Virus record (IMG/VR): IMGVR_UViG_3300021469_000002
Span: 15,772-79,771 of that record
Source: a virus
Direction: 5' to 3' (one strand)
DNA: 64,000 nt
Numbering within the stretch: position 1 is the first letter of the stretch; each line of letters starts with the position of its first letter. Under the pieces are notes generated by a model. That model was not told the origin of the DNA and did no database searches. It saw nothing but the letters and a program-made list of their open reading frames with translations. Both the position numbers and the translations under genes were made by a program. Positions 3,872 to 54,075 of this stretch are shown here, in pieces.

Positions 3872-4903
3872 ATGACATTGTTTGTTACTTGGGCAAAACA
3901 ACCAGAAGTAGTAGGTGGTTGTGAATCAATCTTTCAAGATTTAGCTCAAAATTTAAAAGGAAAATTGGTTACTTATCCTTACGGAGATATGTTAATAAGT
4001 TTTCCTGATATGCCCACTAATTTAGAATTTATGGAAGAATATAAATCTTGGGCGTTTGATGAATATATTGAAAGATATCTCATAGACTATCCTAATACAA
4101 CAATAGTTGCTAATTGCGGTTCAATTAATATATGGAGAAAACATAAAACAAAAATAATCAATATTTTTAACGATCCTTATAAAAAAGCACAAGAAGTAAT
4201 GTTAAAAGAAGGAAGTATATCTCTTTATGTTCCCAAACTTGTTAATAAACTAACTGAATTACAAAAGAAAGCAGCAAAAAATGCAATTAATATTGCCGTG
4301 AGCAAGATAGCAAAAGAAGGTATGGAGGATATAGGAATTAAATGTGATGGCATAATAGAGCATGGTGTTAATAGTAATTTCTTTAAACCTTTAAATAAAG
4401 ATGATTTAAGAGAAAAATATAATGTCAATTCAAAAAAAATTGGAGTATTTGTTGGTTTGGTTCATCCAATTAAAAATTGGCAATGTATGGAATATTTAAT
4501 GAGTACAAGAAAAGATATTACTTGGATCCTTGTATTAAAAGAATTATACAGAGGAATAAACATTTATTTTAATAATGCTCATATATTTGTTAGAATACCA
4601 AGAGATATGATGATTGAAATATATAATATGGCCGATTTTATTTTTGTTCCTTCGTTTTTTGAATCTTTTGGTTTAGTATCAATAGAGGGTGGGTTGTGTA
4701 ATATTCCTATTGTAACTTCTAAAACAGGGTGGGTAGATGATGAAGGAATAACCGATTATGGTATTGTTGTAAAAGGATTCAAAGCAAAAGATTTTTCAAG
4801 AGCAATTGATGATGTTTTTGAATATGATTTTTCCCCAAGAAAATATATGAAAAAAAGATTTAATTTTAAAAATTGGATACAAAAATGGAAAAAACTTATT
4901 TAA
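3872..4903 (+). CDS. Family 4 (GT-B) glycosyltransferase
   Basis: GGCE, HGVNSNFFKP, PSFFESFGLVSIEG (Ex7E). Confidence 0.9.
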   Translation: MTLFVTWAKQPEVVGGCESIFQDLAQNLKGKLVTYPYGDMLISFPDMPTNLEFMEEYKSWAFDEYIERYLIDYPNTTIVANCGSINIWRKHKTKIINIFNDPYKKAQEVMLKEGSISLYVPKLVNKLTELQKKAAKNAINIAVSKIAKEGMEDIGIKCDGIIEHGVNSNFFKPLNKDDLREKYNVNSKKIGVFVGLVHPIKNWQCMEYLMSTRKDITWILVLKELYRGINIYFNNAHIFVRIPRDMMIEIYNMADFIFVPSFFESFGLVSIEGGLCNIPIVTSKTGWVDDEGITDYGIVVKGFKAKDFSRAIDDVFEYDFSPRKYMKKRFNFKNWIQKWKKLI

Positions 4904-5537
4904 TTAATTTTTTTACTGTGTTCCAATTGTATCTAATAATTTTGCATTTTCTTTTTTCTTTAAGTTTTGCTTTAATAAATTCAATAGTTTTTTTATCTCC
5001 TGGGCTTCCTGATCCAAAATCTCCATACTGTTTTTTTAATTTTTCATATTCAAGAATTGATAAATGTTTTGCTAATATGCTTGCACAGCCTACAGCTATG
5101 TCCCTACTTTCATTATTATGATCAATAATCCATTTATTCCAATCAAATTTAAAGCCAAGTTTTTCTGCTCTCCAAATAAATTTTTCTCTATTTCTATCAA
5201 AATTGTTTATTTGAATTTCTTGAACATCCCATTTTTTAATAAAATTCTTTGCAAGAGTACAATAAGCATTGCATTCCATATCGTTTAAATTATATTCGTT
5301 TGTTGATTTGCTAATTTCTTCTGCTGTAATATATATACTATTCCATTCAACAAATTTTGGAATTAATTTAGCGAGTTCGTGTATCTGTTTATAAGTAAGA
5401 AGTTTACTATCCTTAACACCTAATCTTTTTAAACATTCAAGAAATCTTTTTTCTACTAATACTCCTACACAAACTAAACTTCCGATTACTGGGCAACGTG
5501 TAACATCATCTATTCCAACTATTAAATACTTCACCAC
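4896..5537 (-). CDS. rnhB: Archaeal-type ribonuclease HII (divergent active site)
   Basis: GID..R.PVIG, GVKDSK, ASILAK, YGDFGSG motifs. Confidence 0.85.
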   Translation of the reverse strand: MVKYLIVGIDDVTRCPVIGSLVCVGVLVEKRFLECLKRLGVKDSKLLTYKQIHELAKLIPKFVEWNSIYITAEEISKSTNEYNLNDMECNAYCTLAKNFIKKWDVQEIQINNFDRNREKFIWRAEKLGFKFDWNKWIIDHNNESRDIAVGCASILAKHLSILEYEKLKKQYGDFGSGSPGDKKTIEFIKAKLKEKRKCKIIRYNWNTVKKLIK

Positions 5538-7531: not shown

Positions 7532-7784
7532 TATTCACCTCTTCAACTTTAATATTAAAATAACCATCCTCATTTAACATTTTTTTAAACCAATCAATTG
7601 CTTTTTCTAATCCATTATAACCAAAGCCACTACTACTACTAACAATTATTTGTGCACCTAACATATCGGCATCTGTTGAAATTTGCCAAGTTTTTTGTTT
7701 TTTATTTATTTCAACAAACAAATGAACAAGTTTTTCATTTCTTTTTCTATCAAACCTGATTAAGTTTGTTTGACTCATATTCAA
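7512..7784 (-). CDS. Hypothetical protein
   Basis: ORF in operon. Confidence 0.5.
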   Translation of the reverse strand: MNMSQTNLIRFDRKRNEKLVHLFVEINKKQKTWQISTDADMLGAQIIVSSSSGFGYNGLEKAIDWFKKMLNEDGYFNIKVEEVNNEVDKN

Positions 7785-8949
7785 TCACCATAGGGTATAA
7801 TGAAACTAAAAAATTTCTTTCTCTTGTATCAACCTTATAAATTTCACCCAAATTTAACCATTCTCTAATTCTTCTTTCTGCTGTTCTTTCTGTTTGAACA
7901 TAACCTTTTCTAATTAGCCATCTTTTTAGTTCAACCGTTGTTTTTGCTTTTCTTCCCAAAAATTCATATAACATTGCTTGGATTGGAGATTTCATTTGTT
8001 GTAATTCCTCAAGTAATTCCTTTTTCCAATTTAAACCCAATTCTTTAGCAAATCTATAAGTTTGAAATGCTTTTTGTTGTGTTCTCAAATTAAAATTATT
8101 ATATCCACAAAATACATAGTTTTTGATTAAAAATTCCGTAACTTCTTTTTCTTCTTTTGTTCTGGCTATTTGCCTCATTATGTTTGCTAAATCATCATAA
8201 TCCAAAGTTAATTCTATAAATTCTCCTCTACTTAATAATGCTTCAAAATCGTCTTTAAATGCTACTTCCTGAAGATTATTATAATCAAATATGATTTTAC
8301 CTGTGAATATAAATTCTCTTGGCAAATCTTTTTGATATTTGCTATAATTATGTTGTGTTAATAAACGATCTTCTGGATCTGTTTCACACGCATTTTTTAA
8401 ATTACTTATACTTGTTAAATTTCTTAATAATCTCAAAACATCTTTAAACCAAATTGTTTTGCCATTGTTCTCATAAAGTAATCTATAAAAATATGCATCT
8501 GAAACCATTCCTGCAACAGAAACATAATCAACATTAAATTTATTAAGAGCCAATTTGATATGAAAACTTTTTCCTATTCCTGCTTTTCCCTTGATAAAAA
8601 CTAAATTTGTATACCCCAAAGCTAATTTTTGAATTGCCCTATAAATTGGTTTATAATAATTTAATATTTCTGTCGTTTGTCGCTTATTTTGTCGCTTAAA
8701 TTGTTCCTTAATAAATTCTTGTTGTTCTTTGTGAAATTCTTCAAGATATTTTTTAGACAACTTACCATTATTATCAAAAATTCCTAATTCTTTTAATTTC
8801 TCAATAATTATATTTTTGTTTTCTTTGTAACTTAAGGATCTATCTATATGTGCCTCTAAATCAAATGTTTGTATATCTTTATTTGCTTCTTTAAATTTTT
8901 TCTCTACAAATTTTTTTAACAATTTAATTTGGAATTTTGTAAGAGTCAT
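7750..8949 (-). CDS. P-loop (AAA+-like) ATPase with probable C-terminal winged helix
   Basis: Walker A GKAGIGKS, ALLSRG arginine-finger-like motif, C-terminal RTAERRIREW. Confidence 0.75.
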   Translation of the reverse strand: MTLTKFQIKLLKKFVEKKFKEANKDIQTFDLEAHIDRSLSYKENKNIIIEKLKELGIFDNNGKLSKKYLEEFHKEQQEFIKEQFKRQNKRQTTEILNYYKPIYRAIQKLALGYTNLVFIKGKAGIGKSFHIKLALNKFNVDYVSVAGMVSDAYFYRLLYENNGKTIWFKDVLRLLRNLTSISNLKNACETDPEDRLLTQHNYSKYQKDLPREFIFTGKIIFDYNNLQEVAFKDDFEALLSRGEFIELTLDYDDLANIMRQIARTKEEKEVTEFLIKNYVFCGYNNFNLRTQQKAFQTYRFAKELGLNWKKELLEELQQMKSPIQAMLYEFLGRKAKTTVELKRWLIRKGYVQTERTAERRIREWLNLGEIYKVDTRERNFLVSLYPMVIEYESNKLNQV

Positions 8950-9013
8950 TTTTTACACTCCTATATATTTTTTCCTTAATTTAACCTATCCTTTCGTAAA
9001 CCTTTACGGTTTT

Positions 9014-9865
9014 TTAAATAAATCTTACAAATTTGGGAAATCTCATTTTGTTATTTTTACTTAACTCTTGAAAAGATACCTCTACATATTGTGGTTTATG
9101 TTTATAAAAATAATCTATATCTTTTTGGTTTGGAACACTTATTCTTCCCAATTTTGTAATAAGATTTAAAACCCTTACATTTACACTTTTATTTTTTTGT
9201 GGACGGGATTTAGATTTAGTATCATAACCAATAATTTCTAATGTTTCAGTAAATTCTTTTTTACATTTTAACCAATAATTACTCCTTTTTTGAATATATG
9301 GGCTATCTATTCTTTTTGCTACTATTCCCTCAAATCCTTTATTAATTAAATCCTCAAAAATCTTAAGAGGATTACCCACAAACACATCAATTATTTTAAT
9401 TAAATTATTTTTCTTAATTAATTCAGTTTCTAAAATATGCCTCCTCTCTATATATGGTAAATGAGTTAAATCATTATTATTAAGATATAAAATATCAAAC
9501 ACAATATATTTCACAGGGATTGTTTTACTTGCTAATTTACATTTTAATGGATTCATTAAATGTGTTCTACTTAATAAAGAAGGAAAATCCTTACTAATCA
9601 TTTCTCCATCAAGAATAATATTTCTTATTGCATTATTGAATATTTTTTTTAATTTTTTAATATTAAATTCAGGAAATTGATAATTAGGAACAATTTCAAA
9701 TAAATTGGTTTGGGAATTTCTTCTTTTAATAACTAAAGAATCGTTTAAAAGATCTATAATAAATAAATTTCTTGAGCCATCCTGTTTTGGCTCTATAGCA
9801 TAACCAACTAATTTATTTAAATCCTCTTTTTTAATTCTATTAGCCAACATAGGTTTTTCAATCAT
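9014..9865 (-). CDS. Minimal ATP-dependent DNA ligase
   Basis: EPKQDGSR (motif I), LDGEM, FDIL, EGIVAK, WLKCK, MRFP. Confidence 0.92.
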   Translation of the reverse strand: MIEKPMLANRIKKEDLNKLVGYAIEPKQDGSRNLFIIDLLNDSLVIKRRNSQTNLFEIVPNYQFPEFNIKKLKKIFNNAIRNIILDGEMISKDFPSLLSRTHLMNPLKCKLASKTIPVKYIVFDILYLNNNDLTHLPYIERRHILETELIKKNNLIKIIDVFVGNPLKIFEDLINKGFEGIVAKRIDSPYIQKRSNYWLKCKKEFTETLEIIGYDTKSKSRPQKNKSVNVRVLNLITKLGRISVPNQKDIDYFYKHKPQYVEVSFQELSKNNKMRFPKFVRFI

Positions 9866-10038
9866 TTATTAACTCCTCTTTGATTTTTTTTGAAATTTCT
9901 TTCCCTTTTAAATCTTCAATTATTTCTATTACATCCTCTAAAGTTAGGGCTATATGATCCTTTAATTCTTCTGCCGTGAAATCAATAAGTTTATTTTTTC
10001 TATCTAATATTATTTTCATATTTCACCTCTATTTTTAG

Positions 10039-10094
10039 TTAAGAACGGATGTAGGGCTATGTGAGGGGCTTCTGTAATCCAAATCCGTTCTTAA
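10039..10094. repeat. Perfect 12-bp inverted repeat with 32-nt loop
   Basis: TTAAGAACGGAT (10039-10050) / ATCCGTTCTTAA (10083-10094). Confidence 0.85.
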
Positions 10095-10097
10095 TTT

Positions 10098-10841
10098 CTA
10101 CTTGAGTTTGGAAACGATTTTTTCCAAACCTTTACTAAAATCATCTTCCTTTTTTGAAATGGTAGGTTTCTTTTTCTTTATTATTGCCTCAAACAATTCA
10201 TTAGTGTATTCATCTTTAATGTCTTGTAATTTTATGTTTCTTGTTTCTTTTTCTATGCTTTCCAATAAAAGTAATGCATTATTCACATCTTTTTGTGAAA
10301 CATCTACAGGTTTTAATGGTGTTGGCGTTCTAATTTGTTCTACATAAATTAATTGAAGCAAAACAAGAAATTTACCAAAAGGTTCTACTAATCCTATGTG
10401 TTTTCTGTTTCTTATAAAGTAATCTATTAATAATGTTTTGTTTCCCTTAATCAAAGCATTTAATAATATAAAGTATCCTTTTTCAAACTTGGCTTTTGGT
10501 ATCAAATAGTATACTTTGTCTATTAAATATTTCATTTGGTTTGTGTCTTTATTGTTCAAAACCTTTAAAACCTTACAAGATTTATCCTGTTTCTCTTTGA
10601 TATAATTTATTAATTCTGAATCAAAGATTATTTTGTTGTCTTTGTTTATTTTATATGCTTTTTTTAACTCATTATATTGAATTTCCTTATTACATTTTTC
10701 GCACCATCTTTTTATTTTTATGTCGTGTCCCTTTGAACATACATTACTGAAATTAATTGTTTGATAATCCGCAAATCCCGAAATTGCTAATGGTAAATTT
10801 AACATTCCAAACTCAAGATTAATGGTTCCTAAACTTTTCAT
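10098..10841 (-). CDS. ku: Prokaryotic Ku (DNA end-binding) protein
   Basis: N-terminus LEFGMLNLPL...INF...IKIKRWCEKCNKEI.YNELKKAY, YYLIP and late DEYT match the Ku core. Confidence 0.82.
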   Translation of the reverse strand: MKSLGTINLEFGMLNLPLAISGFADYQTINFSNVCSKGHDIKIKRWCEKCNKEIQYNELKKAYKINKDNKIIFDSELINYIKEKQDKSCKVLKVLNNKDTNQMKYLIDKVYYLIPKAKFEKGYFILLNALIKGNKTLLIDYFIRNRKHIGLVEPFGKFLVLLQLIYVEQIRTPTPLKPVDVSQKDVNNALLLLESIEKETRNIKLQDIKDEYTNELFEAIIKKKKPTISKKEDDFSKGLEKIVSKLK

Positions 10842-11244: not shown

Positions 11245-11433
11245 TTATATCCCTCCCAAATCCAACTGCTTTTTAATAATCATTCTACATTTAGCAAAAC
11301 TTTCCTCCACAACAGCATTTAAATTTTCCTTTTCGTTTAATTCTACTTCCAATTCAATACTCGGCTTAATGTTTTCATACATCCCAATTTTTTTCGTTTG
11401 GCTAAAACCCACTTTGATTTTTTTAACTTTCAT
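11245..11433 (-). CDS. Hypothetical protein
   Basis: ORF in minus-strand operon. Confidence 0.5.
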   Translation of the reverse strand: MKVKKIKVGFSQTKKIGMYENIKPSIELEVELNEKENLNAVVEESFAKCRMIIKKQLDLGGI

Positions 11434-14890: not shown

Positions 14891-15550
14891 ATGATGAACA
14901 AGCAAAAAGGTAATATGTATCCTTGGGTAACTCACACATGGAATGCTATTCGTGGAAAATGTCCATATGATTGTAATTATTGTTATATGAAAAATTTAAT
15001 AAAAAATAAAAAACTAAGATTAGAAGAAAAAGAACTTGAAACTGATTTAGGGCAAAATAATTTTATTTTTGTTGGTTCTTCTATAGATATGTTTGCTGAA
15101 ACGATTCCGAGAATATGGATTGAAAAAGTTTTGGCTCATTGTAGAAAATATCCAAATAACACTTATCTTTTCCAATCCAAAAACCCAAAACGCTTTTATG
15201 AATTTATTAAATTAAGAATGTTCCCCAAAAGAACTATATTAGGAACGACAATAGAAACTAATAGAAACTATGAAACAAAAGCTCCTCAGCCAAAAGAAAG
15301 ATATATGGCAATGAAAAATATTAAAGAATTTGAAAAAATGGTTAGCATAGAACCTATTATGGATTTTGATTTTAATATTATGGTTGGAATGATATATTTT
15401 ATTAGACCCAAATTCGTTTCAATCGGGGCTGATAGCAAAGGGCATAATTTACCTGAACCACCAAAAGAAAGACTTATTAAATTAATCGAAGAACTTACCA
15501 GATTTACTAAAGTTAAAGTTAAGGACAATCTTAAACGATTATTAATATGA
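14891..15550 (+). CDS. Radical SAM protein (phage Gp37/Gp68, DUF5131-like)
   Basis: TWN..RGKCPYDCNYCY, FVGSSIDMF, KNP.R, GTTIET, VSIEP. Confidence 0.8.
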   Translation: MMNKQKGNMYPWVTHTWNAIRGKCPYDCNYCYMKNLIKNKKLRLEEKELETDLGQNNFIFVGSSIDMFAETIPRIWIEKVLAHCRKYPNNTYLFQSKNPKRFYEFIKLRMFPKRTILGTTIETNRNYETKAPQPKERYMAMKNIKEFEKMVSIEPIMDFDFNIMVGMIYFIRPKFVSIGADSKGHNLPEPPKERLIKLIEELTRFTKVKVKDNLKRLLI

Positions 15551-16938
15551 GAACATTAGAACAAATTTTTGGAGATGAGAAAGAAGAAAAATTCCTACTA
15601 GATTGTAGATTTGATTTTGGTAAATGGGTTAGAAGAGTACATGGTTATCAATATAAATGGTTTCATAAAGAATGGGTTGATGCTCTTGAATCTAAAAAAA
15701 GGATAGCTATCCTAGCTCCTACGGGTTTTGGTAAAACAACAATACTTGCTGTATGTTATTCGATATGGAAAACTTTTTATAATCCTTATTGGCAGGGTTT
15801 AATAGTTTCTAATTCTGTTCCTCAAGCAACGAAAATAATAGATCAAATCAAATTTGAATTAACTGAAAATGAACTATTACAGCGTTTAATTCCTAGTTAT
15901 TCTCAATTAACTTGGAGCAAAACAGAAATTTCTACAGCCACTAAAGGAAAAATATTTTGCAAACCTTATGGTGAAAGTGCAAAAGGAGTGCATGTAGACT
16001 ATGTTTTATGCGATGAGGCTTCATCTTATCGTGACCATAATATATTTTTTCGGTATATAGTAACAAGAGCAACAGCAAAAAGAGGTTGTGTTGCTGCAAT
16101 CTCAACGCCTGTAAATGAAACTGATTTAATGATTTCTAAATTAATGAAAAACCCGGAATACTGGCACAAGGCATACCCTGCTATACAAAATGGAAAATCT
16201 ATATGGCCGGAAAGATTTCCATTAGAATGGCTAAGAAAAAGAGAAGCGGAGATTGGTAAAACAGCATTTGCTCAACAATATTTATGTAGAATAGTGCCTG
16301 AATCAGAAGAAATTCCATTTCCTATGAATTTATTAATAAAGGCACATGATTTGAATTTAAGATTTATGGATAAAAGACCAGAAGGAGATACTGATCCTTA
16401 TTATGTTGGTTGCGACTTTGCTCTTGCTATAAAGGGAGATTGGTCTGCATTTGTAGTTGGTAAGAAAAGAAAAGATAATAAAATTCAAGTCGTTAAGATA
16501 TTTAGATTTAGAGGAATGTTGCCATCAGCTCAAATGGAAGTTTTAAGAAGTATTAATAATAATTATCAACCCAATAGGATGCTTTTGGATAAATCTAATT
16601 TTGGAGAAATGTTTGTTAGAGATTTAATAGCAGAAAATCTTCCTGTAGTTGGTTTTCCATTTACACAGGAAAATAGAAACTCGGCGTTTGCAAAAGCTAT
16701 AACATTATTCAATGAAGGTAATATAATATTGCCATATAGTAAAGAGGAAACTCCAACATCAAAAATGATTGACAGACTAGAACACGAATTAACTCATTTT
16801 GTTGTTGATAAGACACCAAGAGGATACGCAACATATAAAAGTTTATCTGATTATGATGATGTAGCTATTGCTTTTATATTAATGGTTAAGGCGGCATCGG
16901 AAGAAAGAAAGTTTTTATCATACATGAGGGCTAGGTAA
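15547..16938 (+). CDS. terL: Terminase large subunit
   Basis: Walker A APTGFGKT, Walker B VLCDEA, nuclease GCDFA...DDVAIA. Confidence 0.92.
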   Translation: MRTLEQIFGDEKEEKFLLDCRFDFGKWVRRVHGYQYKWFHKEWVDALESKKRIAILAPTGFGKTTILAVCYSIWKTFYNPYWQGLIVSNSVPQATKIIDQIKFELTENELLQRLIPSYSQLTWSKTEISTATKGKIFCKPYGESAKGVHVDYVLCDEASSYRDHNIFFRYIVTRATAKRGCVAAISTPVNETDLMISKLMKNPEYWHKAYPAIQNGKSIWPERFPLEWLRKREAEIGKTAFAQQYLCRIVPESEEIPFPMNLLIKAHDLNLRFMDKRPEGDTDPYYVGCDFALAIKGDWSAFVVGKKRKDNKIQVVKIFRFRGMLPSAQMEVLRSINNNYQPNRMLLDKSNFGEMFVRDLIAENLPVVGFPFTQENRNSAFAKAITLFNEGNIILPYSKEETPTSKMIDRLEHELTHFVVDKTPRGYATYKSLSDYDDVAIAFILMVKAASEERKFLSYMRAR

Positions 16939-17042: not shown

Positions 17043-18320
17043 ATGGTTGTACTGGACTTCAATTCTATTAGAGGTATTTTTAAGGGTTCTCAAAGACAAG
17101 TAATCCAGACTCTAGCAATAAGAAGCAGTGCAGGCGAAACGAAGACAATAAAATCAGATGAAGAAGAAATAAAAAGAGTTTCTCCGCTTGATTTAGAAAC
17201 AATATATATTAGAGAAGGAATGGTTTATAATTGGATTAATAAATTTGTTGAATCATTTCTTTCTTCCGATTTCAGAATTAATACATCTAATACAAGAGAA
17301 CGCAGAATAATGGAAGATTTTTTAAGAGCTTCAGATTTTAGAAATTTATTAAAAACTACTGTTGCTCATATGTTGATTTACGGGAATGCTTTCTGGGAAA
17401 AAATAACTAATGATGGACCTAAAATTCTTGCTGTTACATGGATTGATCCAAAAAGTATGGATGTTAAAAGAACATCAATGGGTAAAATTATTTATGATAT
17501 GGATGGTAAACCAACGGCTTATGTGCAATATGTTAAATGGAATGTTGACACTTCCAAAGTTCCAAAAGAAAGATTAATACAACAACAGCCAATGTTTTCT
17601 TATCAAAGCGGAAAAGGTATACTTTTAAAAAGAGAGGAAATTGTTCATTTTACTTTAAATACTGTGGGAGATTCTTGGTGGGGGGTTGGGTTAATTGAAC
17701 CAATATATAATATAGTTAGGGTAAAACAAAACGCTGAAGCGGGATATGCAGAAGCTATTCAAAGAGTTGCTTATCCAAGAATATGGGTAAGAATTGGAGA
17801 TGAACAACATCCGCCAACACAAGAACAAATAGATGATGTATGGAATCAATTAAAAGGATTAGAAACAAAACATCAGTTTGTAACGCCATATTATTACAAT
17901 CCACAAATTCTTGAATCAAAAAGGGTTGAAAGATTAGCACAAAATTTAAAATATTTTTCTGATCAAATAGTTGCAGGTTTGGGAGGACCAAAACCGTTTA
18001 TTACTGGACTAGGTACAGATACAAATAAGGCAACATTAAATGATCAAAAAATATTATTTGAAAGACAGTTAAAAGCATTACAAGAGCAAATTAGTCATAC
18101 CATAATGAAAAATGTGTTTGCTGATATAGCAAAACAGTATAGATTTCGTTCTGTTCCTGTATTAGTTTGGGAAGAAATTTCTACAGAAAGTTTAGACAGT
18201 AAAGCAGATAGACTGGTTAAATATGTTAATTCTGGATTGCTTATTCCAGACAAGGAAATAAGAAATATAGTAAGACGGTCGGAGAGATTACCGGAGGAGC
18301 CCAACGATATTCAAAAATAA
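17043..18320 (+). CDS. Portal protein
   Basis: Follows terL; IYGNAFWE, EIVHF, WWGVGLIE, TNKAT patterns of portals. Confidence 0.85.
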   Translation: MVVLDFNSIRGIFKGSQRQVIQTLAIRSSAGETKTIKSDEEEIKRVSPLDLETIYIREGMVYNWINKFVESFLSSDFRINTSNTRERRIMEDFLRASDFRNLLKTTVAHMLIYGNAFWEKITNDGPKILAVTWIDPKSMDVKRTSMGKIIYDMDGKPTAYVQYVKWNVDTSKVPKERLIQQQPMFSYQSGKGILLKREEIVHFTLNTVGDSWWGVGLIEPIYNIVRVKQNAEAGYAEAIQRVAYPRIWVRIGDEQHPPTQEQIDDVWNQLKGLETKHQFVTPYYYNPQILESKRVERLAQNLKYFSDQIVAGLGGPKPFITGLGTDTNKATLNDQKILFERQLKALQEQISHTIMKNVFADIAKQYRFRSVPVLVWEEISTESLDSKADRLVKYVNSGLLIPDKEIRNIVRRSERLPEEPNDIQK

Positions 18321-18763: not shown

Positions 18764-21700
18764 ATGAAATTAACGATTTTAGGTTCGGGTCCTACTAAAC
18801 CCGTTATGGGTAAAGGAAAGAATAGACGTAGGAATAGTTCTATGCTTTTACAAACAAGAAACGGAATTAATATTCTTTTTGATTGCACTCCTAATTTTTA
18901 TGAACAAATGCAAACCTTTGCTGATAATATTAATAGAATAGATTATATTATTATTAGCCATGGTCATGCAGATGCAATTGGTGGAATACCGCAATTAAAA
19001 CATTGGCTACAAGAAAAGAAACAAGAAGATAAACCAATTGTATACATGGAAAAAGAAACCGAAGCCAGAATAAGAGAAAAGTTTAAAGACATTGAACATA
19101 TTAATATAAAAAATTTTACCCCGTACAAAGTTTTAAATTTAGACTATCTAAAAATAGTTCCATTTAGGGTAATACACGCTGAGGCATTTCCAACAGGTCA
19201 TAAATTTCCATGCGTAGGATTCAGAATTGATAATAAAGTTGTATATGCTGAAGATATGGAAAAAGCACCAGAAAAGTCTATACCATATTTTGATAAATCT
19301 CATGTAATTATTATCGATGCAGCGATGTGGTTTGGAAAAAGTATTAGAGGACATATGAATATAGAAGAAGCATTACAATTTGTTAAAAAATTTAAAACTA
19401 GGAAAGTTGTTTTCACACAAGCAGGACACACTTATCCTGATTATGTAACAGCTTTAAAAGAAATTAAAAAGCGTTGGAAAGAAATAGGCGGAAGTTCAAA
19501 AGTTGATATTGAATTAGCTTATGATGGTATGGAAATTAATATACCAGATTATTTCCAAAAAATAAATGATTATCTTATTGAGTTAAGAGAGGGAATATAT
19601 CTTCCTGCTCCTCATGCAGAATTGCTTTGGAAAGGAAATAAGAAATATATTGTTAAAGCAAAAAAATATTCAAAAATGTTAGACAGGCTTCTTTATGTTT
19701 GTGATCAAAAATACGCTTATGCAATAATTAAATTAAAAAAGCCATTTATGATTAATCTCGAAGAATTTAATAAGTATAAACCAAAACATCTTGTTAGTAA
19801 TGAAGAAAGAAAGAAATGGTGGGGTAATAAAAGGTATTTATTTCTTTATCCATTTGATATAGTTGAAAAATTCAAAAAACCTAAAGAAATTAAAGTTGAA
19901 CGAGGAGTACAAACTTTCATAAAGAATGTTAAATTTTTAGCAGAACTCTCTACTATTGAACTTATTGAGGATGTCGCAGAATATGACCCACATACTGTTG
20001 GTAATGCACAGTTGGCTGATGATTGGAGAATTGTTTGTGCTTGGTATGCAACCAAGAAAAAAGGAGGCAAAATTAAATTTTCATTAGAAACTATAGTAAA
20101 TTTAGCAAAACTAATTTATGATGAAATAGTTAAAAGAGTTAAAAGAGGAGATATGAAACATGAGTTTCAGCCAGAAAAAATGACTCCATTTTCAAAACAA
20201 TTATATGATATAGTTTCTCAAAATAAAATTATTAAAACACCAGAAGAAGAATGTAAAGATACAGAATATACTGTAGATGTCGAGGAAGTAAAGCCCTTAA
20301 TAGACCAATTTAAAGAGTTTAAAATAATTAAAGATTTTATTTCAATTGTGGGTTCGACAGTCAAAAGAGAACCGGGTCATAAACCAAATGATATAGATTT
20401 GCATATTCGTTTAAGAACGCCACCAGATTATATTAAACGAGCAATAGAAGTAAGAATACTAAAAATGCTTCCAGCAGAGATTGCAAATAAAATTCATTTT
20501 GTATGGGGAGATCCAGAGGGTTCACATGATTCTTTTATTCCTCTTTATGATCTTGCATTAGTAAGGACAGAACCAAAAGTTGTTGAAATGAAAGATACAA
20601 CAACAGCTCAAGTTCCTGAACTTCTTCCAACTGTTTGGATTGTTGGAAAAAAAGTTAGGGTTAAAGACAAAATTGGAAAAATAAAAGAAATAAAAAAAGA
20701 ACCAAAAATATATATAATTGAATTTGAAGACGGAACAACCATAGAAGCAAAAGAGGAAGAACTAAAAGCTATAGATTTTATTCCTCTCAAACCTTTTTTA
20801 CCTCTTAAAAGCACATCTATATATAACAAAACAAAATTTTATGATCTTAAAAAAATAATAGAAGTACTTAATCCTAGTGAAGAAAATCTTTATATAGTTG
20901 AAGAAAAATTTGATGGTTTTAGAGGGGTATTACATAAAAAAGGAAATAAAGTAAAAATCTTTTCGGATCAAGGAAAAGATATAACTGATGCTTTTCCTAC
21001 AATATGTGATCAAGCACTTGATTTAACAGCAGAAGATATTATACTTGATGGGGAAATTGTTCCTTATGATAAAAAAGGAAGATCTTTGGGAAGAAGAGGA
21101 TTAATGGAGTTCATTGGAGCAATTAGATCAGGCAAAAAATTAGATGATTCGAATATTAAATATCATGTCTTTGATATTCTTTATTATAAAAATAAATCTT
21201 TACACGATGCCAGACTTTATGAAAGAAAAAAAGTACTTAACCTATTAAAATTCACAAAAAATATAGTCAAAGTTCCATTTGTTGTTGTTGCTAATAAAGA
21301 ACAATTGGAAAAAGCAATAAAATTATTCAGGGCTTTACCAAAAAGCGAAGGTGCGATGATAAAGGCTTATAATTCTACTTATCCAGTTAGTGGAAAAACT
21401 CCTTTCTGGATTAAATTTAGAAACGCAAGAGATATTCATGTCAAAGTTTTAAAAGTTTTGCCTGTTAAAGGAACAGAAAATGCTTGGAGATATATGTGTG
21501 GCATTGAAATTCCAGAAAAAAAAATTAAAGAATTTAATCCTGATAAACTTATGAAATATAATTCAAAAACCTATATGGTTTTTGGCAATACATTTAATAC
21601 TTCTGTAAAAGCAAAAATTGGAGATATCATTGATGTTGATGTTCAAGAAATTTGGAAACATGTTGGTCCTAAAGGAATACATTATAGCTGGCATAAACCC

Positions 21701-23584
21701 GATGTTCGATTTCTATCTGAAAGAAAGACTACTTCAACAATAGCTGATTTAGATGCAATAGTTGATGCTATAGGAGTTTTGGTTAAAGAATATGGAGAAG
21801 AAGCAATTTTAAAAGAATTTGAATTAATGAAACAAGAATTAAAAAAAATAAAAGATGAAGGAGAAACTAGAGCAGAATATGCAACCAAGTTTTGGGCGTC
21901 TCATTGGTGGAAATCATATCCAAAAACAGGAAAAGGTAAAATGGTCTACCAACATCATTGGAGAGGGTTGACAGAAGAAGAAGCAAAATGGGATGAAGAA
22001 AAGTTATTACAAACTGATAGAAGCGTTCATGGTGATTTAAGAATGCAGTTTAATCCTAATACTTTATTTGGTTTTACGATATTCTTAGGCGAAGTAGAAG
22101 ATTTAAGAAAAGGAAGGGATTTATGGAATCTTAAAGAGCCAGATAAATTGCAAGGAACATGGAAACTTTGGCAGCCTTGTATCTCGGAAGATTCTTTTGT
22201 GATAAAAAATCAAAATATAATTCAGGCTAAAGAGCTTCATATAGGCGATAAAATTTTGGATGCTAATGGCGTTTTTAGTCCCATAACTTCAATTGATGAA
22301 ATAGAAGACAACGAACAGTATTTGATTAAACCAAGTTATGGCTTACCTATCCAAGTGAGTAAATTGCATCCGTTTTTAGTTAACGGGTTAAGCGAAAGCC
22401 ATACATTAGCACTGCTTTCACACAAGAAAAGAAAGATAATCAAACATAATTGTTTGCCCGTTTGGAAAAACGCAAAAGACTTAAAGATTGGCGATATATT
22501 ACTTTTCCCTAAGTTAAAAATTAAGAAAATTAATTATATTGGCACTTATGAAGAGGGAAAAATAATCGGATTCTTTCTTGGAGATGGGCATTTGTTTAGA
22601 GCTGGAAAAGATTATAAAACTCTATATTGTGCTTTAACCTTTAATGCAAAAGAAGATATCAATTCATATAAGAACTTGCTGAGAAAAATGGGTGTCCATA
22701 GCTGGATTTCCAGCCCCCCATCTGCAAAAAATACAAAAAATCTGGTATTTACATGTAAAGGAAGAATCAAAGATCTCATATTTCAGGTTTTTGACAAAGA
22801 AAAACAAATACCGCACAAATATTTGTATGCAAATAAAAAATTTATTAAAGGTTTGATAGACGGGTTAGTGGATTCTGATGGATATGATAAAAACAATCGA
22901 AGGTTCATAATTAATACATCAGCTTCAATAATAAATGGAGCTGTTTTATTGTTACATCGGTTAGGTCATATTCCAAGTATCCGTTATAGAGAGAACAGTG
23001 ATGTTGGCTTTAGGCTTCGTAAAAAGAAAAGCAAATTAAAAAAAGTTTTTGAAATAAGTTGGACTAAAAAACCAAAACATAAAAATTGGTTTGATTATGA
23101 AAATTTTTACGGTTTCAGGGTCAGACATATAGAAAAAGCAAAACCCAAAAGGTTATTGAATATAATCACGAAAAGCCATACATTATGCTCCCCCTATTTC
23201 ATTATGCATAATTCCGCGTGGTTAGATGTCGGCAAGAAAAAACCTTATGTATCAAAACCATCTGAAGTGGGAGCAACTCCAAAAAAATATGCAAAATTTT
23301 TTGCTGAAGATTGGGGTACATATGAAATTGGTGTATGGAGAGAGCACTTTTTTGAGTTTTTCTTCCATGGAAAAAAATTAAAAGGTAGATATTTGATTGT
23401 GTATGCTCCTGTGGGAGAAGGAGGAAGAAAATGGTTAATTGGAAAACCAGCAGATCAAACTCCTTATGCTGATAAACATAATATAGAAGATATAATAAAA
23501 GAATTAAAAATGAAAAAACAAGAATGGTTAATTTGGGCAAAACCTGGTGTCAAACCCAAGCTTATTAATGTGAAAAGGCGTTAA
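18764..23584 (+). CDS. Multidomain nucleic-acid end-processing protein: MBL hydrolase + ASCH-like + Pol-beta-like NTase + SH3-like + ATP-dependent DNA ligase + LigD-type 3'-phosphoesterase (intein-containing)
   Basis: ILGSG/SHGHADA/GH/AYDG; PHAELLWKGNKK; VGS...NDIDL; EEKFDGFR/LDGEI/FDIL/EGAMIK/WIK; YQHH...HGDLR...DWGTYE...HGKKLKGRY. Confidence 0.8.
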   Translation: MKLTILGSGPTKPVMGKGKNRRRNSSMLLQTRNGINILFDCTPNFYEQMQTFADNINRIDYIIISHGHADAIGGIPQLKHWLQEKKQEDKPIVYMEKETEARIREKFKDIEHINIKNFTPYKVLNLDYLKIVPFRVIHAEAFPTGHKFPCVGFRIDNKVVYAEDMEKAPEKSIPYFDKSHVIIIDAAMWFGKSIRGHMNIEEALQFVKKFKTRKVVFTQAGHTYPDYVTALKEIKKRWKEIGGSSKVDIELAYDGMEINIPDYFQKINDYLIELREGIYLPAPHAELLWKGNKKYIVKAKKYSKMLDRLLYVCDQKYAYAIIKLKKPFMINLEEFNKYKPKHLVSNEERKKWWGNKRYLFLYPFDIVEKFKKPKEIKVERGVQTFIKNVKFLAELSTIELIEDVAEYDPHTVGNAQLADDWRIVCAWYATKKKGGKIKFSLETIVNLAKLIYDEIVKRVKRGDMKHEFQPEKMTPFSKQLYDIVSQNKIIKTPEEECKDTEYTVDVEEVKPLIDQFKEFKIIKDFISIVGSTVKREPGHKPNDIDLHIRLRTPPDYIKRAIEVRILKMLPAEIANKIHFVWGDPEGSHDSFIPLYDLALVRTEPKVVEMKDTTTAQVPELLPTVWIVGKKVRVKDKIGKIKEIKKEPKIYIIEFEDGTTIEAKEEELKAIDFIPLKPFLPLKSTSIYNKTKFYDLKKIIEVLNPSEENLYIVEEKFDGFRGVLHKKGNKVKIFSDQGKDITDAFPTICDQALDLTAEDIILDGEIVPYDKKGRSLGRRGLMEFIGAIRSGKKLDDSNIKYHVFDILYYKNKSLHDARLYERKKVLNLLKFTKNIVKVPFVVVANKEQLEKAIKLFRALPKSEGAMIKAYNSTYPVSGKTPFWIKFRNARDIHVKVLKVLPVKGTENAWRYMCGIEIPEKKIKEFNPDKLMKYNSKTYMVFGNTFNTSVKAKIGDIIDVDVQEIWKHVGPKGIHYSWHKPDVRFLSERKTTSTIADLDAIVDAIGVLVKEYGEEAILKEFELMKQELKKIKDEGETRAEYATKFWASHWWKSYPKTGKGKMVYQHHWRGLTEEEAKWDEEKLLQTDRSVHGDLRMQFNPNTLFGFTIFLGEVEDLRKGRDLWNLKEPDKLQGTWKLWQPCISEDSFVIKNQNIIQAKELHIGDKILDANGVFSPITSIDEIEDNEQYLIKPSYGLPIQVSKLHPFLVNGLSESHTLALLSHKKRKIIKHNCLPVWKNAKDLKIGDILLFPKLKIKKINYIGTYEEGKIIGFFLGDGHLFRAGKDYKTLYCALTFNAKEDINSYKNLLRKMGVHSWISSPPSAKNTKNLVFTCKGRIKDLIFQVFDKEKQIPHKYLYANKKFIKGLIDGLVDSDGYDKNNRRFIINTSASIINGAVLLLHRLGHIPSIRYRENSDVGFRLRKKKSKLKKVFEISWTKKPKHKNWFDYENFYGFRVRHIEKAKPKRLLNIITKSHTLCSPYFIMHNSAWLDVGKKKPYVSKPSEVGATPKKYAKFFAEDWGTYEIGVWREHFFEFFFHGKKLKGRYLIVYAPVGEGGRKWLIGKPADQTPYADKHNIEDIIKELKMKKQEWLIWAKPGVKPKLINVKRR
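22178..23212 (+). mobile_element. Intein with LAGLIDADG homing endonuclease (345 aa) in the phosphoesterase domain
   Basis: QP|CISEDS ... FIMHN|S; block B HPFL; GFFLGDG and GLVDSDG. Confidence 0.9.
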
Positions 23585-23793: not shown

Positions 23794-24972
23794 ATGAGTG
23801 AAGATTTACAATCGATTTTTGAGCATCCAATTGTACAACAATTAGCAGAAAAGGCGTGGAAGGATTTAGAATCAGAAGTAAAATTACCTTATATCTTAAA
23901 AGATAAAATTTTGATGTCTCCGGGCGTATGGAACAATTTTTATTATAGTCCAGAAGTTATTAGAAAAATTTTTAAAAACACTAATTGGGACGATCCAAAA
24001 ATTAGGGCTTTATTTTTAGATCACGTTGACGATAGAGCAGCGGAATGGATTGGAGAAGTAATTAATCCAAGATTAGTAAATGGTAATGTTATAGGTGACT
24101 TGGCTATATTAGACAAGCCGACAGCAATTAAATTGGCTTATGGAGCTAAGTTTGGTGTTTCACCCAAAGTTATCGGAGAAGCTGATTACAATAAAAAAAT
24201 GTATGACGGTCATTTTGAAAATTTTTCTGTTGTAATTAATCCTGCTGTTAAGACTACGTTTCTTAACAGCGAAATAAAAATAAAAAATAAAGGAGGAAAA
24301 ATAATGCCAAAGACTAAAGAAGAACTTCAAGAAGAAGAGTCTGAGGCATCCGAAGAAGCAGAAGAACCAGCAGAAGAACAAGAAGAAAAACAAGAAGAAA
24401 AACAAGAAGAAAAACAAGAAGAAAAAGCCGAAGAGCTTGCAGAAAAACTTGCAGAAAAGGTTGCTGAAATTCTCAAGAAAAAGAAATATGCATATCCAGA
24501 GGAAATGAAAAAGAAAAAGAAATATGAATATCCAGAAGAAATGAAAGAAGAAATAGCAAAATTAAAAGCAGAGATAGAGGAACTAAAAAAGAAGAAGAAA
24601 AAATATCCATATGAACAAAAAGCAGAAGAAAAAAATGAATTAAAAGAAGCAGTAGAAACTCATCTATCTGCTTATACAGACTTTATCAAAAAATTCTTGA
24701 AGAAATATCCTAAAGCAACATTAAAAGATGCAGCAAAAGCATGGGCTAAAGAGCATGGAGAATTAGAAGAAAAAACTTCAATAACTGTAGAAGACTTAAA
24801 AACAGAAATTGGCGAAATTGTAACGGCTAAAATGTCCGAGTTTGGTATTAAGCCAATAACAGTTGCAGCTAAATTCATTAATCCTCAGGCAGAAGGTTAT
24901 GTTGAGGAAGCAGAAGAGCATGAGCTTGACCAAGCAATGTTTGATATGATTAAACAGGGGGTGGAAAAATGA
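23794..24972 (+). CDS. Prohead protease fused to scaffold protein
   Basis: PGVWN, LFLDH, IGEV, GVSP, SVVINPA protease-like N-terminus; E/K-rich C-terminus; precedes capsid gene. Confidence 0.75.
   Translation: MSEDLQSIFEHPIVQQLAEKAWKDLESEVKLPYILKDKILMSPGVWNNFYYSPEVIRKIFKNTNWDDPKIRALFLDHVDDRAAEWIGEVINPRLVNGNVIGDLAILDKPTAIKLAYGAKFGVSPKVIGEADYNKKMYDGHFENFSVVINPAVKTTFLNSEIKIKNKGGKIMPKTKEELQEEESEASEEAEEPAEEQEEKQEEKQEEKQEEKAEELAEKLAEKVAEILKKKKYAYPEEMKKKKKYEYPEEMKEEIAKLKAEIEELKKKKKKYPYEQKAEEKNELKEAVETHLSAYTDFIKKFLKKYPKATLKDAAKAWAKEHGELEEKTSITVEDLKTEIGEIVTAKMSEFGIKPITVAAKFINPQAEGYVEEAEEHELDQAMFDMIKQGVEK
24379..24426 (+). repeat. Tandem repeat (CAAGAAGAAAAA)x4 encoding QEEK
   Basis: Four exact 12-nt copies. 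Confidence 0.9.
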
Positions 24973-25982
24973 GAACAATACAAGAATTAGCTGATACCAC
25001 GACATCCCATAATACAGACCTTTTAGCAAAAAGATGGTTAGATAAAATAATAGATTCAGCAAGAAAAAAGATGTTCTTTTTGAGTATTGTTAGTCAATAT
25101 GATGTGCCTCCAGGAACCAAAGACATAGTAATTCCATATAGAAAAGGTTATTGGAGCACTCTTGGAACTACAGTAACTGATACTACTACAGAAGGGACAT
25201 CAGTAGTTTTCACAGCAATGAATAATTTGGAAGGTTTAACATTAACACCGTCGCCACATTCCTATGGTATAGCAATATCCAATCACGCAATTAGAACAAC
25301 AGCAACCAATTTAATTCAGGCTGCAAGAGAAGAATTAAGTGATTACTGGGCAGATGTTGTTGATAAAGCCATAGCTGCAGCAATTAATGGAGCCCCCGTA
25401 GCAACTTCTTCAGCAAAGGGTGCTTCTGAATTATTTGGCGGAGATGCAACCTCGACATCAACATTAGAAGCTGGGGATATTTTAACACCATCTCTTATAG
25501 TGAAGGCAAAAGCAAGATTACAAGGAACAAAAATGTATTACTGGTCCGGGGGATCTGAATCAGTTTCAAATGAATCTAAAACGCCTTGGTTCTCTGAACC
25601 TAATTCACCTTTTGTAATTTTCATAGGACCAGAACAGGAATACGTTTTACTAACAGATAGTCAGTTTACTAATGCAGCCGAATATGGTGGTAATGAAATA
25701 GTTCTTAATGGGGAAATAGGAAAGTATCAAGGAGTTAAAGTAATAACATCAGTTAATACTACAGCAGCATCGAATTGGGGTTCAGGAGGAAATTTAGCAG
25801 GACACAACTGTTATGTGGTTAAAGCAGGAGTATGTGCAGCATTAGCTTGGGGACAAAGACCAAGACTTAGAGTATTCGAATATCCAAGTGAGTTAGAAAC
25901 AAGATTAATACTTGAACAAGCATATGCAGTAGATTCGCTTCATAACGATGCCATTTGTCATATAAAGGTTTTAGATGAGTAG
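24969..25982 (+). CDS. Major capsid protein (HK97 fold)
   Basis: Position after protease/scaffold, 337 aa, NGEIGKYQGVKVI motif. Confidence 0.85.
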   Translation: MRTIQELADTTTSHNTDLLAKRWLDKIIDSARKKMFFLSIVSQYDVPPGTKDIVIPYRKGYWSTLGTTVTDTTTEGTSVVFTAMNNLEGLTLTPSPHSYGIAISNHAIRTTATNLIQAAREELSDYWADVVDKAIAAAINGAPVATSSAKGASELFGGDATSTSTLEAGDILTPSLIVKAKARLQGTKMYYWSGGSESVSNESKTPWFSEPNSPFVIFIGPEQEYVLLTDSQFTNAAEYGGNEIVLNGEIGKYQGVKVITSVNTTAASNWGSGGNLAGHNCYVVKAGVCAALAWGQRPRLRVFEYPSELETRLILEQAYAVDSLHNDAICHIKVLDE

Positions 25983-51732: not shown

Positions 51733-54075
51733 CTATTCCAAAATTTTGCTTATTAATTCAGCAACTTGTGGATCTTTATCTCTTTGTTCGTTATAAAATT
51801 CTTTTAAGTCGGCTTGTGTTAATTCTGGAAACACCGGTCTTTGTTTTTGTCTTACAACCCATCTTACTCTTCTTTTATCAGTTTCATCAAAACCTTTTTC
51901 TCTTAAAAGTAATCCCTTAGCATCAAGTAATTTTAAATTTTTATATGTTTTATCGGTTCCCCACCCCATAGAAACCGCCATTTTAGATACTGTAATATCT
52001 CTTCCATCTTCTTCATATTCTTTGCATTTTTTATATAATTTTCTTAATTCTTCACTTCCTTCTATTATTAATTCAAAACTTTCTTCCAATAATTTTTTAA
52101 CCAGATTGTAATCATCTAAAGTAGCAATAATATAAGTTGTACCATCTAATTCAATTTTTGGTCTTTGAAATTGATGTAACCAAGCACTGATTTTAATAAA
52201 TTCTTTAATTTTTTTAAAATCTCTTCTTAATCTAACATACTCGTCTGTTACAGTCATTTTTCTTGCTAAAAGCAAAGAATATGGATTAATTACTTTATTA
52301 TATCTACTTTTTAATAGTCTAATAGCATCTTTTATTAGTTCTTGTCTATCAGCAACATGAATACCTGGATGAATATCCTCTTCTGCTTGAAATTCCATTA
52401 TAGCTTTTGTTTGTTCTGCAGAATCGTTACATTCCAATCTCCAAGTCCTTGTCATAAATTCTTCATCAAGCTGAAGCTGTGTTGAAGCACAAGCAAATAC
52501 AGGAATTCCGTTAGCCTTTAATTTTTTAATAACATTTCTGCCTAATGGGTCTTTGTCTACTATATGTGCTTCTATTCCTTTTTGATCACCTGACATTAAT
52601 GGTCTTAAACTTATTATTGCATCTTGTGCTCCTTCGAATTCTTGAACAACAATTATTTTTCCATCAACATTAGGAACCATTACGCCATCTACTTCTGTTT
52701 TTGGAATATTAGGATCTTGTGCCAAAAGATAATTTATTGCTTTGGAAGAAAAGCTTGTAGCTCTCGTTAAAACATCTTCTTCAGGAATAAAATCTAAAAC
52801 TCTGTTCAATAAATAAGATTTTCCAATAGATGTTGTCCCTGCTAATTGAGGATGTATTCTTTCGTCCAAATAAGCAGAGAGATAACACATCCATAATAAA
52901 AATCTATTTTCTTTTTCATTAACTATTACTTTATCGAATTCCTTTTGAATTTCTTCATAAAGATTATTAGATTTTAAAAATTCCATAGCATTAGCAAACA
53001 TTTTTTCATTTAATCTACATGGACAATTAGCATCATGAACACCAAATTTTGTAAGCAAATTAATTGTCCTTATATCAAAATAAATATAAGGCTGTTTTTT
53101 ATACCATTCAACCCATTGATATAATTCTTTTACTGAAAATTGGGTTTGTCCTCCTCTTTCAAGACAAGCTTTATGATATTGTTTAAGTATTTTCATAGTT
53201 TCTTCTTCGCTTAAATTATCTAAAGCACAACATAAAGCAACAACACCAGCACCATCATGTCTCATTCCTTCTTCGTTTCCTTCTCTGATTAATTTTTGAA
53301 CACAAGGAAGAGTAGTATAAGCACCTTCAAATTTTTCAATAACTTTTGGTTTTTCTTCTTCGATTGTAGTAGATAAATATTTATTAATTATTGTTCTTAA
53401 TTTTCCTATAGGAACATTCCAAAATTCTATTTTATCTGGATATACAACCTCATCATGATTAAATACTCTTTTTTTAACTTTTGGAAGATCGGTTATTATA
53501 GTTTTATATGCCCATTTTACATTACCTAATTCATCTACACCAGCTTCTTTTCTTCCACCAAACTCTCTTATTAATTTGCCTTTAGTTTCATCAGAAAAAT
53601 TAACTGTAGAATCGTCAAATGGTTTTCCTTTGCCTATATAATTTTTGTCTATTCCCGAAAGTCTTAAAATCTCATTCCATAAATAAGTTCTAATTATTCT
53701 TTCTTGGAAGCCATTTTTATATGCTTTAGTCAAAAGAGGTAAAATATCATCTGTTAAAACAATTTTAAAAAATATATGAATATGTATGCCTTTTCCACCA
53801 CTATCGGCTAAAATGTGTGGTATTTTATGTTCTCTTAAATATGTAATTACTTTTGAACCAAATTCTCTTATATTATTCCAATCCCTAAAATCAATATCTA
53901 TAACTATTTCATTTTGTAATACTGTTCGATAATCAATAGGAAATTCAGCTTGAGATAATGGTATCCATATACCAATCGGCCAAGTTTCATCAGGGGCTTT
54001 ATAATGATTGCTAACTAAAATCGGTTTTCCTGTATTTGCTGCCTCAACTTTTTTAATCCAGTCTTCCTGTCTCAT
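51733..54075 (-). CDS. AEP primase-helicase fusion
   Basis: IDID, SGGKGIHIH (AEP); LPC...EGMRH (PriCT-like); Walker A GTTSIGKS; C-terminal wHTH. Confidence 0.85.
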   Translation of the reverse strand: MRQEDWIKKVEAANTGKPILVSNHYKAPDETWPIGIWIPLSQAEFPIDYRTVLQNEIVIDIDFRDWNNIREFGSKVITYLREHKIPHILADSGGKGIHIHIFFKIVLTDDILPLLTKAYKNGFQERIIRTYLWNEILRLSGIDKNYIGKGKPFDDSTVNFSDETKGKLIREFGGRKEAGVDELGNVKWAYKTIITDLPKVKKRVFNHDEVVYPDKIEFWNVPIGKLRTIINKYLSTTIEEEKPKVIEKFEGAYTTLPCVQKLIREGNEEGMRHDGAGVVALCCALDNLSEEETMKILKQYHKACLERGGQTQFSVKELYQWVEWYKKQPYIYFDIRTINLLTKFGVHDANCPCRLNEKMFANAMEFLKSNNLYEEIQKEFDKVIVNEKENRFLLWMCYLSAYLDERIHPQLAGTTSIGKSYLLNRVLDFIPEEDVLTRATSFSSKAINYLLAQDPNIPKTEVDGVMVPNVDGKIIVVQEFEGAQDAIISLRPLMSGDQKGIEAHIVDKDPLGRNVIKKLKANGIPVFACASTQLQLDEEFMTRTWRLECNDSAEQTKAIMEFQAEEDIHPGIHVADRQELIKDAIRLLKSRYNKVINPYSLLLARKMTVTDEYVRLRRDFKKIKEFIKISAWLHQFQRPKIELDGTTYIIATLDDYNLVKKLLEESFELIIEGSEELRKLYKKCKEYEEDGRDITVSKMAVSMGWGTDKTYKNLKLLDAKGLLLREKGFDETDKRRVRWVVRQKQRPVFPELTQADLKEFYNEQRDKDPQVAELISKILE

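Follow-up and report, generated by a model that had tools for sequence, protein, structure and literature searches.

The IMG/VR virus record IMGVR_UViG_3300021469_000002 is 79,771 bases long and is rated 100% complete by CheckV. In the 64,000 nucleotides of it that were analysed here (bases 15772-79771 of the record, hereafter the window), three co-oriented open reading frames (ORFs) lie on the minus strand within about 3 kb: a gene for Ku (10098..10841, 247 aa), a gene for a minimal ATP-dependent DNA ligase (9014..9865, 283 aa) and a gene for an AAA+ ATPase (7750..8949, 399 aa). A first-pass annotation of the window had described this arrangement, which we find exactly as it was described, and had proposed that the virus carries a near-complete pathway of non-homologous end joining (NHEJ), with a second DNA ligase and a phosphoesterase (PE) domain encoded in a giant ORF elsewhere in the genome. 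The comparisons reported here suggest that Ku and the adjoining ligase are inherited together as a unit, and that this unit may be supplemented by the giant protein.

That the first of the three genes encodes Ku is borne out by searches with Ku profiles. The protein matches Pfam PF02735 over residues 27-184 (E 1e-22, 81.4 bits against a cut-off of 25; 81.8 bits in a six-frame search) and PHROG 4873, 'Ku-like DNA end binding' (E 4.9e-21), and in it the core beta-barrel/ring domain is followed by a conserved C-terminal motif and then by a Lys-rich tail. Against NCBIfam TIGR02772 it scores 113 bits (E 1.6e-32), under the equivalog cut-off of 150, and it represents a divergent lineage outside the canonical bacterial orthologue group. 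A profile built from the viral Ku, nine close homologues and one distant homologue aligns collinearly, over positions 1-243, with the solved bacterial Ku proteins 8v53, 9i91 and 9vnq (E 4e-43 to 8e-43). The viral protein has a cluster, C35-x3-H39-x7-C47-x2-C50, in which C47 and C50 correspond in the alignment to the CxxC of solved Ku proteins and C35 to a His there. In Mycobacterium tuberculosis Ku, the minimal C-terminus (around D247-L251) is required for stimulation of LigD (PMC9638933). The profile match extends into the stretch aligned to this minimal C-terminus, where the viral clade conserves an acidic-F-S-x-x-L motif that is followed by the Lys-rich tail. At the level of sequence, the ORF at 10098-10841 is a genuine full-length Ku with a Ku fold, and it is predicted to form a ring dimer and to bind DNA ends.

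The adjoining ligase is built of a nucleotidyltransferase domain and a shortened OB domain, without an N-terminal DNA-binding domain, and it matches PF01068 with 107 bits (E 1.3e-30). The catalytic residues of motifs I, III, IIIa, IV, V and VI are complete and invariant in the alignment of its clade, namely the adenylation lysine K27 (in K-Q-D-G) with D29, G30 and R32, followed by D86-G87-E88, F123-D124, E179-G180...K184, W198, K200 and K202, and R275. Among the NCBIfam models, TIGR02779 for the NHEJ ligase domain fits it best (E 1e-31), although the score of 110 bits lies below the cut-off of 227.75 and the match covers only positions 14-204 of 302. Outside the viral clade, the proteins closest to it are ligases of about 326 aa that stand alone and bear the JGI name LigD.

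Loci with relatives of the viral Ku came only from metagenome contigs, and none was found among the viral contigs or the genome contigs searched. Their number is small: a collection of 5.8 billion proteins held only nine close homologues of Ku and four or five of the ligase. The homologues of the two proteins lie on contigs of equal size (5660, 15178 and 8428 b), an indication that they share these contigs. The co-occurrence of the two genes in related contigs, part of a check that the first-pass annotation had suggested, was seen wherever it could be assessed, in that the ligase comes after Ku both in the window and in all three related contigs with sequence downstream of Ku (L002, L004 and the 3'-truncated L003), at identities to the window of 50-64% for Ku and 37-55% for the ligase. 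Two further related contigs stop inside Ku. Synteny, co-occurrence and the kind of ligase together indicate that Ku and the ligase form a unit, in which the ligase is assigned, from these comparisons, to the Ku-linked (LigD/LigC-like) kind and is co-inherited with Ku.

Two small ORFs accompany the pair on the same strand. The one between Ku and the ligase (9858..10019) would encode an acidic protein of 53 aa (pI 4.9) and overlaps the start of the ligase by 8 nt; no small ORF between the two genes is conserved in the relatives, so it is possibly not a gene. The spacer between Ku and the ligase in these relatives measures 146-183 nt and contains no open frame (5152-5297 in L002, 1371-1553 in L003 and 1151-1333 in L004, the last two being the same). 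Upstream of Ku, a basic ORF of 62 aa (11245..11433) recurs at the same position, with 48% identity, in contigs L002 and L006, and it may also belong to the module.

A cellular counterpart of the pair was found in the Aenigmatarchaeota, the DPANN phylum to which the host probably belongs (see below). Complete Ku-based NHEJ had been taken to be rare in archaea, a premise that does not hold for this phylum: Ku is present in 30 of the 201 genomes sampled and a stand-alone PE in 64 of them, and end-joining genes are thus not rare there. In nine of ten Ku loci of the Aenigmatarchaeota, a gene for a ligase of about 325 aa comes next after Ku and has the same orientation; upstream of the cellular pair lies an unrelated gene that encodes a radical-SAM protein. 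Over its full length the viral ligase scores up to 113 bits against these Ku-adjacent ligases, compared with 43 bits against the 570-aa replicative ligase of the phylum. Identity between viral and cellular proteins is low, at 24-29% for Ku and 27-35% for the ligase. Since this low identity is combined with conservation among the viruses, a long viral residence seems indicated rather than a recent capture, and the viral genes would represent an old viral lineage of the cellular Ku-ligase pair.

The second set of functions lies in the head module, where the giant ORF (18764-23584, plus strand, 1606 aa) occupies the interval between the genes for the portal (17043-18320) and the capsid protein (24969-25982). 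It begins with a metallo-beta-lactamase (MBL)-fold hydrolase domain of RNase Z/PhnP-like type (18764..19549). Further on, a nucleotidyltransferase (NTase)-like domain with a G-S...D-x-D motif (20144..20728) directly precedes the second ATP-dependent DNA ligase (20729..21793), which is followed by the N-terminal half of a domain resembling the 3'-phosphoesterase domain of LigD (21851..22177), by an intein of 345 aa with a LAGLIDADG homing endonuclease (22178..23212, residues 1139-1483) and by the C-terminal half of the PE-like domain (23213..23581). The intein begins with C-I-S and ends with H-N, after which comes S. The ligase is matched at residues 696-885 (E 3.2e-28), with K-F-D-G as its motif I at residue 715, and is only a distant relative of the first viral ligase (32% identity over 131 aa).

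The first-pass annotation had claimed both a PE domain and a ligase for this ORF. The ligase was confirmed directly, and the PE domain could be recognised only by way of homologues. Hidden Markov models (HMMs) of the domain (PF13298 and TIGR02777) gave no match in the whole ORF, in pieces of it or in a six-frame search of the genome, because the intein splits the domain; the intein sits next to the place of the second catalytic motif in canonical PEs. The sequences flanking the intein are halves of one domain and align contiguously in 71 homologous large proteins. They are 43-75% identical to the homologues P0179, P0221, P0224 and P0226, in which LigD_N passes its cut-off of 31.1 bits across the junction of the halves, with 32-42 bits. 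The single PDB sequence match of the C-terminal half is 3p43 (E 0.017), which is an archaeal PE and one of two such structures in PMC3082917, and when an HMM was made from 20 cellular PEs, its match was confined to the final 45 residues of this half (18.8 bits); the N-terminal half gave only chance matches to chromodomains in the PDB. The catalytic residues of PEs are His, His and Asp for Mn and Arg, His and Tyr for phosphate (PMC3082917). Four of the six are recognisable in the giant protein (H1064/H1065, H1089, D1091 and R1093, all in the N-terminal half), with an insert of 18 aa between the two His. A PE-family domain that is divergent and split by an intein is present by these sequence criteria, and it may have 3'-phosphoesterase activity. 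Inteins in or near the PE region were also seen in the homologues P0176 and P0179.

When the homologues of the giant protein were compared segment by segment, the NTase-like domain (in 58 homologues), the ligase (in 69) and the PE domain (in 71) emerged as a conserved core, around which MBL, methyltransferase, uracil-DNA glycosylase and XkdF prohead protease modules vary. The NTase-like domain (residues 461-655) could possibly be a minimal nucleotidyltransferase of the Pol-beta fold, as the confident core of its structural model bears a weak resemblance to such enzymes (best Z 5.2, Foldseek E at least 0.1); residues 263-655 had no match in the protein atlas. If this assignment is true, the NTase-ligase-PE core would be an analogue of LigD with a different polymerase. 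Many homologues are fused to the XkdF (S78_2) prohead protease. The protein in the window is without this domain, and the next ORF (23794-24972) has no similarity to the protease-bearing homologues. Because relatives of the giant protein are fused to a prohead protease, the earlier division of the end-joining genes into an early set and a late or packaged set, which the position in the head module also favours, is a fair reading as regards an early set and a possibly packaged one. An MBL-fold ORF resembling the N-terminus of the giant protein was observed in two Aenigmatarchaeota PE loci (L010 and L014).

The third gene of the minus-strand group had likewise been counted among the NHEJ genes. 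Sequence matches of the AAA+ ATPase are weak, and its AlphaFold model, with a predicted local distance difference test score (pLDDT) of 91, has an AAA+ fold with a lid and a C-terminal winged helix, for which RuvB, Orc1/Cdc6 and DnaA are the best folds (Foldseek E about 1e-6). Residues G124, G126, K127, D170, N224, R241 and R289, which represent P-loop, Walker B, sensor and arginine residues, are conserved across 44 sequences. The family is large, with 1217 cluster representatives at E up to 0.001, and distant relatives (about 25% identity) occur in 672 phage records, mostly of T4-like coliphages and Acinetobacter phages. In L002 the ATPase is 1.7 kb away from the ligase and 32% identical, so that synteny is loose. 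We rejected the ATPase as an NHEJ factor because its family is far wider than the Ku clade; it is probably a replication or recombination factor. Some depositors have named relatives of this protein clamp loader, and PHROG 1250 lists the function as unknown.

Two other genes that had been linked to end joining are likewise more readily placed in replication. RNase HII (4896..5537, minus strand, E 1.8e-32) lies at the downstream end of the same leftward block and is syntenic in L002; the gene is as annotated, and primer removal is a simpler role for it than the proposed removal of ribonucleotides inserted during repair. The AEP-like primase (51733..54075, minus strand, 780 aa) carries a P-loop domain and a winged helix in the same polypeptide, an architecture like that of viral and plasmid primase-helicases. 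Its AEP catalytic core was matched below threshold (PF21686, 19.4 bits against a cut-off of 27.4). Because the fusion of AEP to a P-loop helicase-like domain is typical of replicative primase-helicases, no NHEJ polymerase was identified, and the protein is likely a replicative primase. PF21686 matches this primase-helicase only, and no AEP-type POL domain was found in the giant ORF.

The primase lies in a second leftward block (51733-55288), which gives the virus its own recombination and priming functions, since it also encodes a Holliday-junction resolvase (54337-54699) and a Cas4/RecE-like exonuclease (54632-55288), both on the minus strand. Elsewhere, a calcineurin-like phosphoesterase (59845-60597) weakly resembles both the archaeal DNA polymerase D small subunit (E 3.3e-7) and a phage 'DNA repair exonuclease' family; it is a possible end-processing enzyme with an archaeal hint. 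The genome as a whole is that of a tailed virus of about 80 kb, in which the genes for a T4-like large terminase (TerL, 15547-16938), the portal and the capsid protein are all present. The G+C content is 24-40%, and no tRNA genes were found in the window. The final 126 bases of the record are repeated at its bases 4-129, and the repeat grows to about 129 b if a one-base difference in poly-A is tolerated (bases 1-129 of the record against 63872-64000 of the window). With this overlap of 126-129 b the map closes on itself and the genome is circularly closed or terminally redundant, though it is labelled linear in IMG/VR.

The host is probably a DPANN archaeon of the Aenigmatarchaeota, to judge from sequences shared with genomes of that phylum. 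Two DNA runs that contain the stretch, and from which it may derive, are hydrothermal-vent metagenomes, and no RNA run was listed with it. The window contains two genes for TnpB (Cas12f-like/OrfB_IS605; 62459-63616 and 36365-37444). The former has its counterpart on a contig (L007) of an Aenigmatarchaeota metagenome-assembled genome (MAG) from the Guaymas Basin, with 86% protein identity and 83% DNA identity over 1.19 kb; it is a recently shared insertion sequence element and the main clue to the host. TerL has relatives in 5 of 371 Aenigmatarchaeota genomes, of which the best is 38% identical over the full length, and the contig that encodes it (G315:C1) carries a collinear giant ORF in the same arrangement.

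Taken together, these observations make it likely, in our judgement, that the virus has a true two-component end-joining module, in which Ku recruits and stimulates the neighbouring ligase, and that this module is supplemented by a heal-and-seal protein that is possibly carried in the virion. The virus could probably bind, clean and seal DNA ends without help from the host. According to this model, Ku and its cognate minimal ligase would constitute a two-gene module inside the leftward early/replication block, and Ku would thread as a ring-shaped homodimer onto free double-strand ends of the viral genome. Bound there, it would shield the ends, hold them together and bring in the ligase, whose gene lies directly downstream, to seal them. 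The giant protein, with its MBL, NTase-like, ligase and PE-like domains, would be packaged and delivered with the DNA, and would clean and seal ends on entry. The purpose of such a system could be to join or protect ends on entry, to circularise the genome or to rescue broken genomes.

Several observations weigh against this model. Both Ku and the ligase are divergent, as each scores under its NCBI equivalog cut-off (113 against 150 and 110 against 227.75 bits), and the later His and the Tyr of PEs have no clear counterpart in the giant protein, where the alignment is weak both there and beside the intein site. The ligase shares its block with RNase HII and the AAA+ ATPase and could be a replicative nick sealer. 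Recombinational circularisation would need no end joining, because the ends overlap by 126-129 b, TerL is T4-like and the virus encodes an exonuclease and a resolvase. Ku is an accessory gene, since no Ku was found in MAG G315, which includes a related virus contig with the giant polyprotein. As to the host, the same TnpB is 84% identical to the edge of a contig in a bin labelled Planctomycetia (L008), and with an assignment that rests on MAG bins and on a TnpB shared in this way, the link to the Aenigmatarchaeota is plausible and unproven.

Some of these points are taken up by the main rival explanation, in which the ligase would serve replication, sealing Okazaki fragments or nicks together with RNase HII, the ATPase and the primase-helicase, and Ku would shield ends from host exonucleases in the manner of Gam, with no cooperation between the two. 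Small ligases without a DNA-binding domain are common as phage replication enzymes. Moreover, the ligase, the AAA+ ATPase and RNase HII not only lie in one leftward block but are collinear in L002, and archaeal replicative ligases (3gde, E 7e-12) are the top solved sequence matches of the viral ligase. However, the order of Ku and ligase has been kept in related contigs despite a divergence to 50-64% (Ku) and 37-55% (ligase) identity and recurs in cellular operons, and the ligase fits Ku-adjacent cellular ligases better than a replicative ligase (up to 113 against 43 bits). A second ligase is also encoded by the virus, and a replicative ligase by the putative host itself. We therefore regard this explanation as unlikely. 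It is very improbable, in turn, that the two genes are mere passengers, a host operon captured recently and without a viral role: although cells of the putative host phylum carry the same two genes, the identity to the cellular pair is only 24-29% for Ku and 27-35% for the ligase, and viral relatives have retained the pair at 50-66% identity, with catalytic residues intact and a shortening of the OB domain of its own.

Circularisation of the genome may be the sole role of the module, as in Corndog and Omega, with Ku and the viral ligase closing short or non-cohesive ends after entry. Among the roles of a phage Ku, this is the one with experimental support (Pitcher et al., 2006, as cited in PMC4351075). 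A head protein that is possibly packaged and that contains both a ligase and an end-cleaning domain would suit it well, being ready before gene expression begins. Nevertheless, the ends of the genome overlap by 126-129 b and the map is circular or terminally redundant, Ku is an early gene outside the head module, and TerL is of the T4-like type. TerL proteins of this type are usually linked to headful packaging. As a sole role, circularisation therefore seems quite improbable. The more elaborate scenario, that the virus handles double-strand breaks by its own means in a host that often lacks such a capacity, and that a capsid-borne heal-and-seal enzyme is injected and is followed by early expression of Ku and the ligase, so that cut or linear genomes are rejoined in a repair-based counter-defence that would be the first NHEJ system of an archaeal (DPANN) virus, is in our view doubtful. 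The idea that the system counters CRISPR or restriction cuts, put forward in the first-pass annotation, was pure speculation, and the virus has recombination genes of its own and a map that closes on itself. A module of Ku and its recruited ligase, with the giant protein as a possible supplement, is thus the reading that we prefer.

Viral Ku genes listed in the papers found here all come from actinophages (PMC11936186), in which Ku has no adjoining ligase (phage WXIN). No relevant paper on Ku or NHEJ in archaeal viruses or in DPANN was found in our literature search, and we found no paper that describes either the Ku-ligase pair or the head-module ligase-PE set in an archaeal virus. The tailed virus described here, probably of a small-genome DPANN archaeon, brings Ku, its own co-inherited ligase and a second ligase with a PE domain in the head module. 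If the proteins cooperate, this would amount to viral end joining that is independent of the host, with a bearing on how linear viral genomes survive entry and nuclease attack, on the patchiness of end-joining genes in archaea and on the origin of the spread of Ku and ligase.

Among known viral systems, the closest are those of the mycobacteriophages Corndog (cluster O) and Omega (cluster J), whose Ku is likewise a single-domain protein of bacterial type, encoded by a tailed virus as an early or non-structural gene. The Ku of Omegavirus WXIN is about 25% identical to the one described here, and its region has no adjoining ligase, whereas in the present virus a ligase lies directly downstream and is co-inherited. 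In agreement with the first-pass annotation, the mycobacteriophage systems are reported to use host end joining and LigD (PMC4351075), and Corndog Ku also lies near an AAA ATPase (PMC4351075). Unlike these phages, the present virus probably has an archaeal host and carries a further ligase-PE set. A parallel can also be drawn with phage Mu, and the present protein is set apart from Mu Gam by its description, as a full Ku of bacterial type that is linked to a ligase. Mu Gam is a viral Ku-related end-binding protein that protects linear DNA.

With regard to the giant protein, both it and bacterial LigD join a ligase and a PE-family domain in one polypeptide, the former with a possible nucleotidyltransferase in front. 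It differs from LigD in that it has no AEP-type POL, has an MBL and other modules added and carries an intein in a divergent PE, and in that its gene lies in the capsid module and has homologues fused to prohead protease, methyltransferases or uracil-DNA glycosylase. It also recalls the polyvalent packaged phage proteins (Iyer et al., 2017; PMC5512222), which are large and multidomain, are encoded beside portal and terminase genes and have shuffled domains. In the part of that paper at hand, the word 'ligase' occurs three times and solely as RNA ligase, and a DNA-ligase or LigD-PE module is not mentioned there; packaging of the giant protein is suggested here by likeness to such proteins.

Among cellular systems, Methanocella paludicola has separate Ku, Lig, Pol and PE proteins (bioRxiv 10.1101/2023.09.30.560322), and the two-gene NHEJ systems of this archaeon and of the Aenigmatarchaeota resemble the viral module in that Ku and the ligase are separate proteins and no fused LigD is used. 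The Aenigmatarchaeota pairs share with it, in addition, the order of Ku followed by ligase and the ligase clade. In comparison with M. paludicola, a stand-alone Pol was not found in the virus, and the viral PE-like domain, split by an intein, shares a head-module polypeptide with a second ligase. Finally, compared with cellular ligases of about 325 aa, the viral ligase has only 283 aa and a shortened OB domain, and together with a Ku of 247 aa it would make, if the two proteins cooperate, a very compact two-protein end-joining system.

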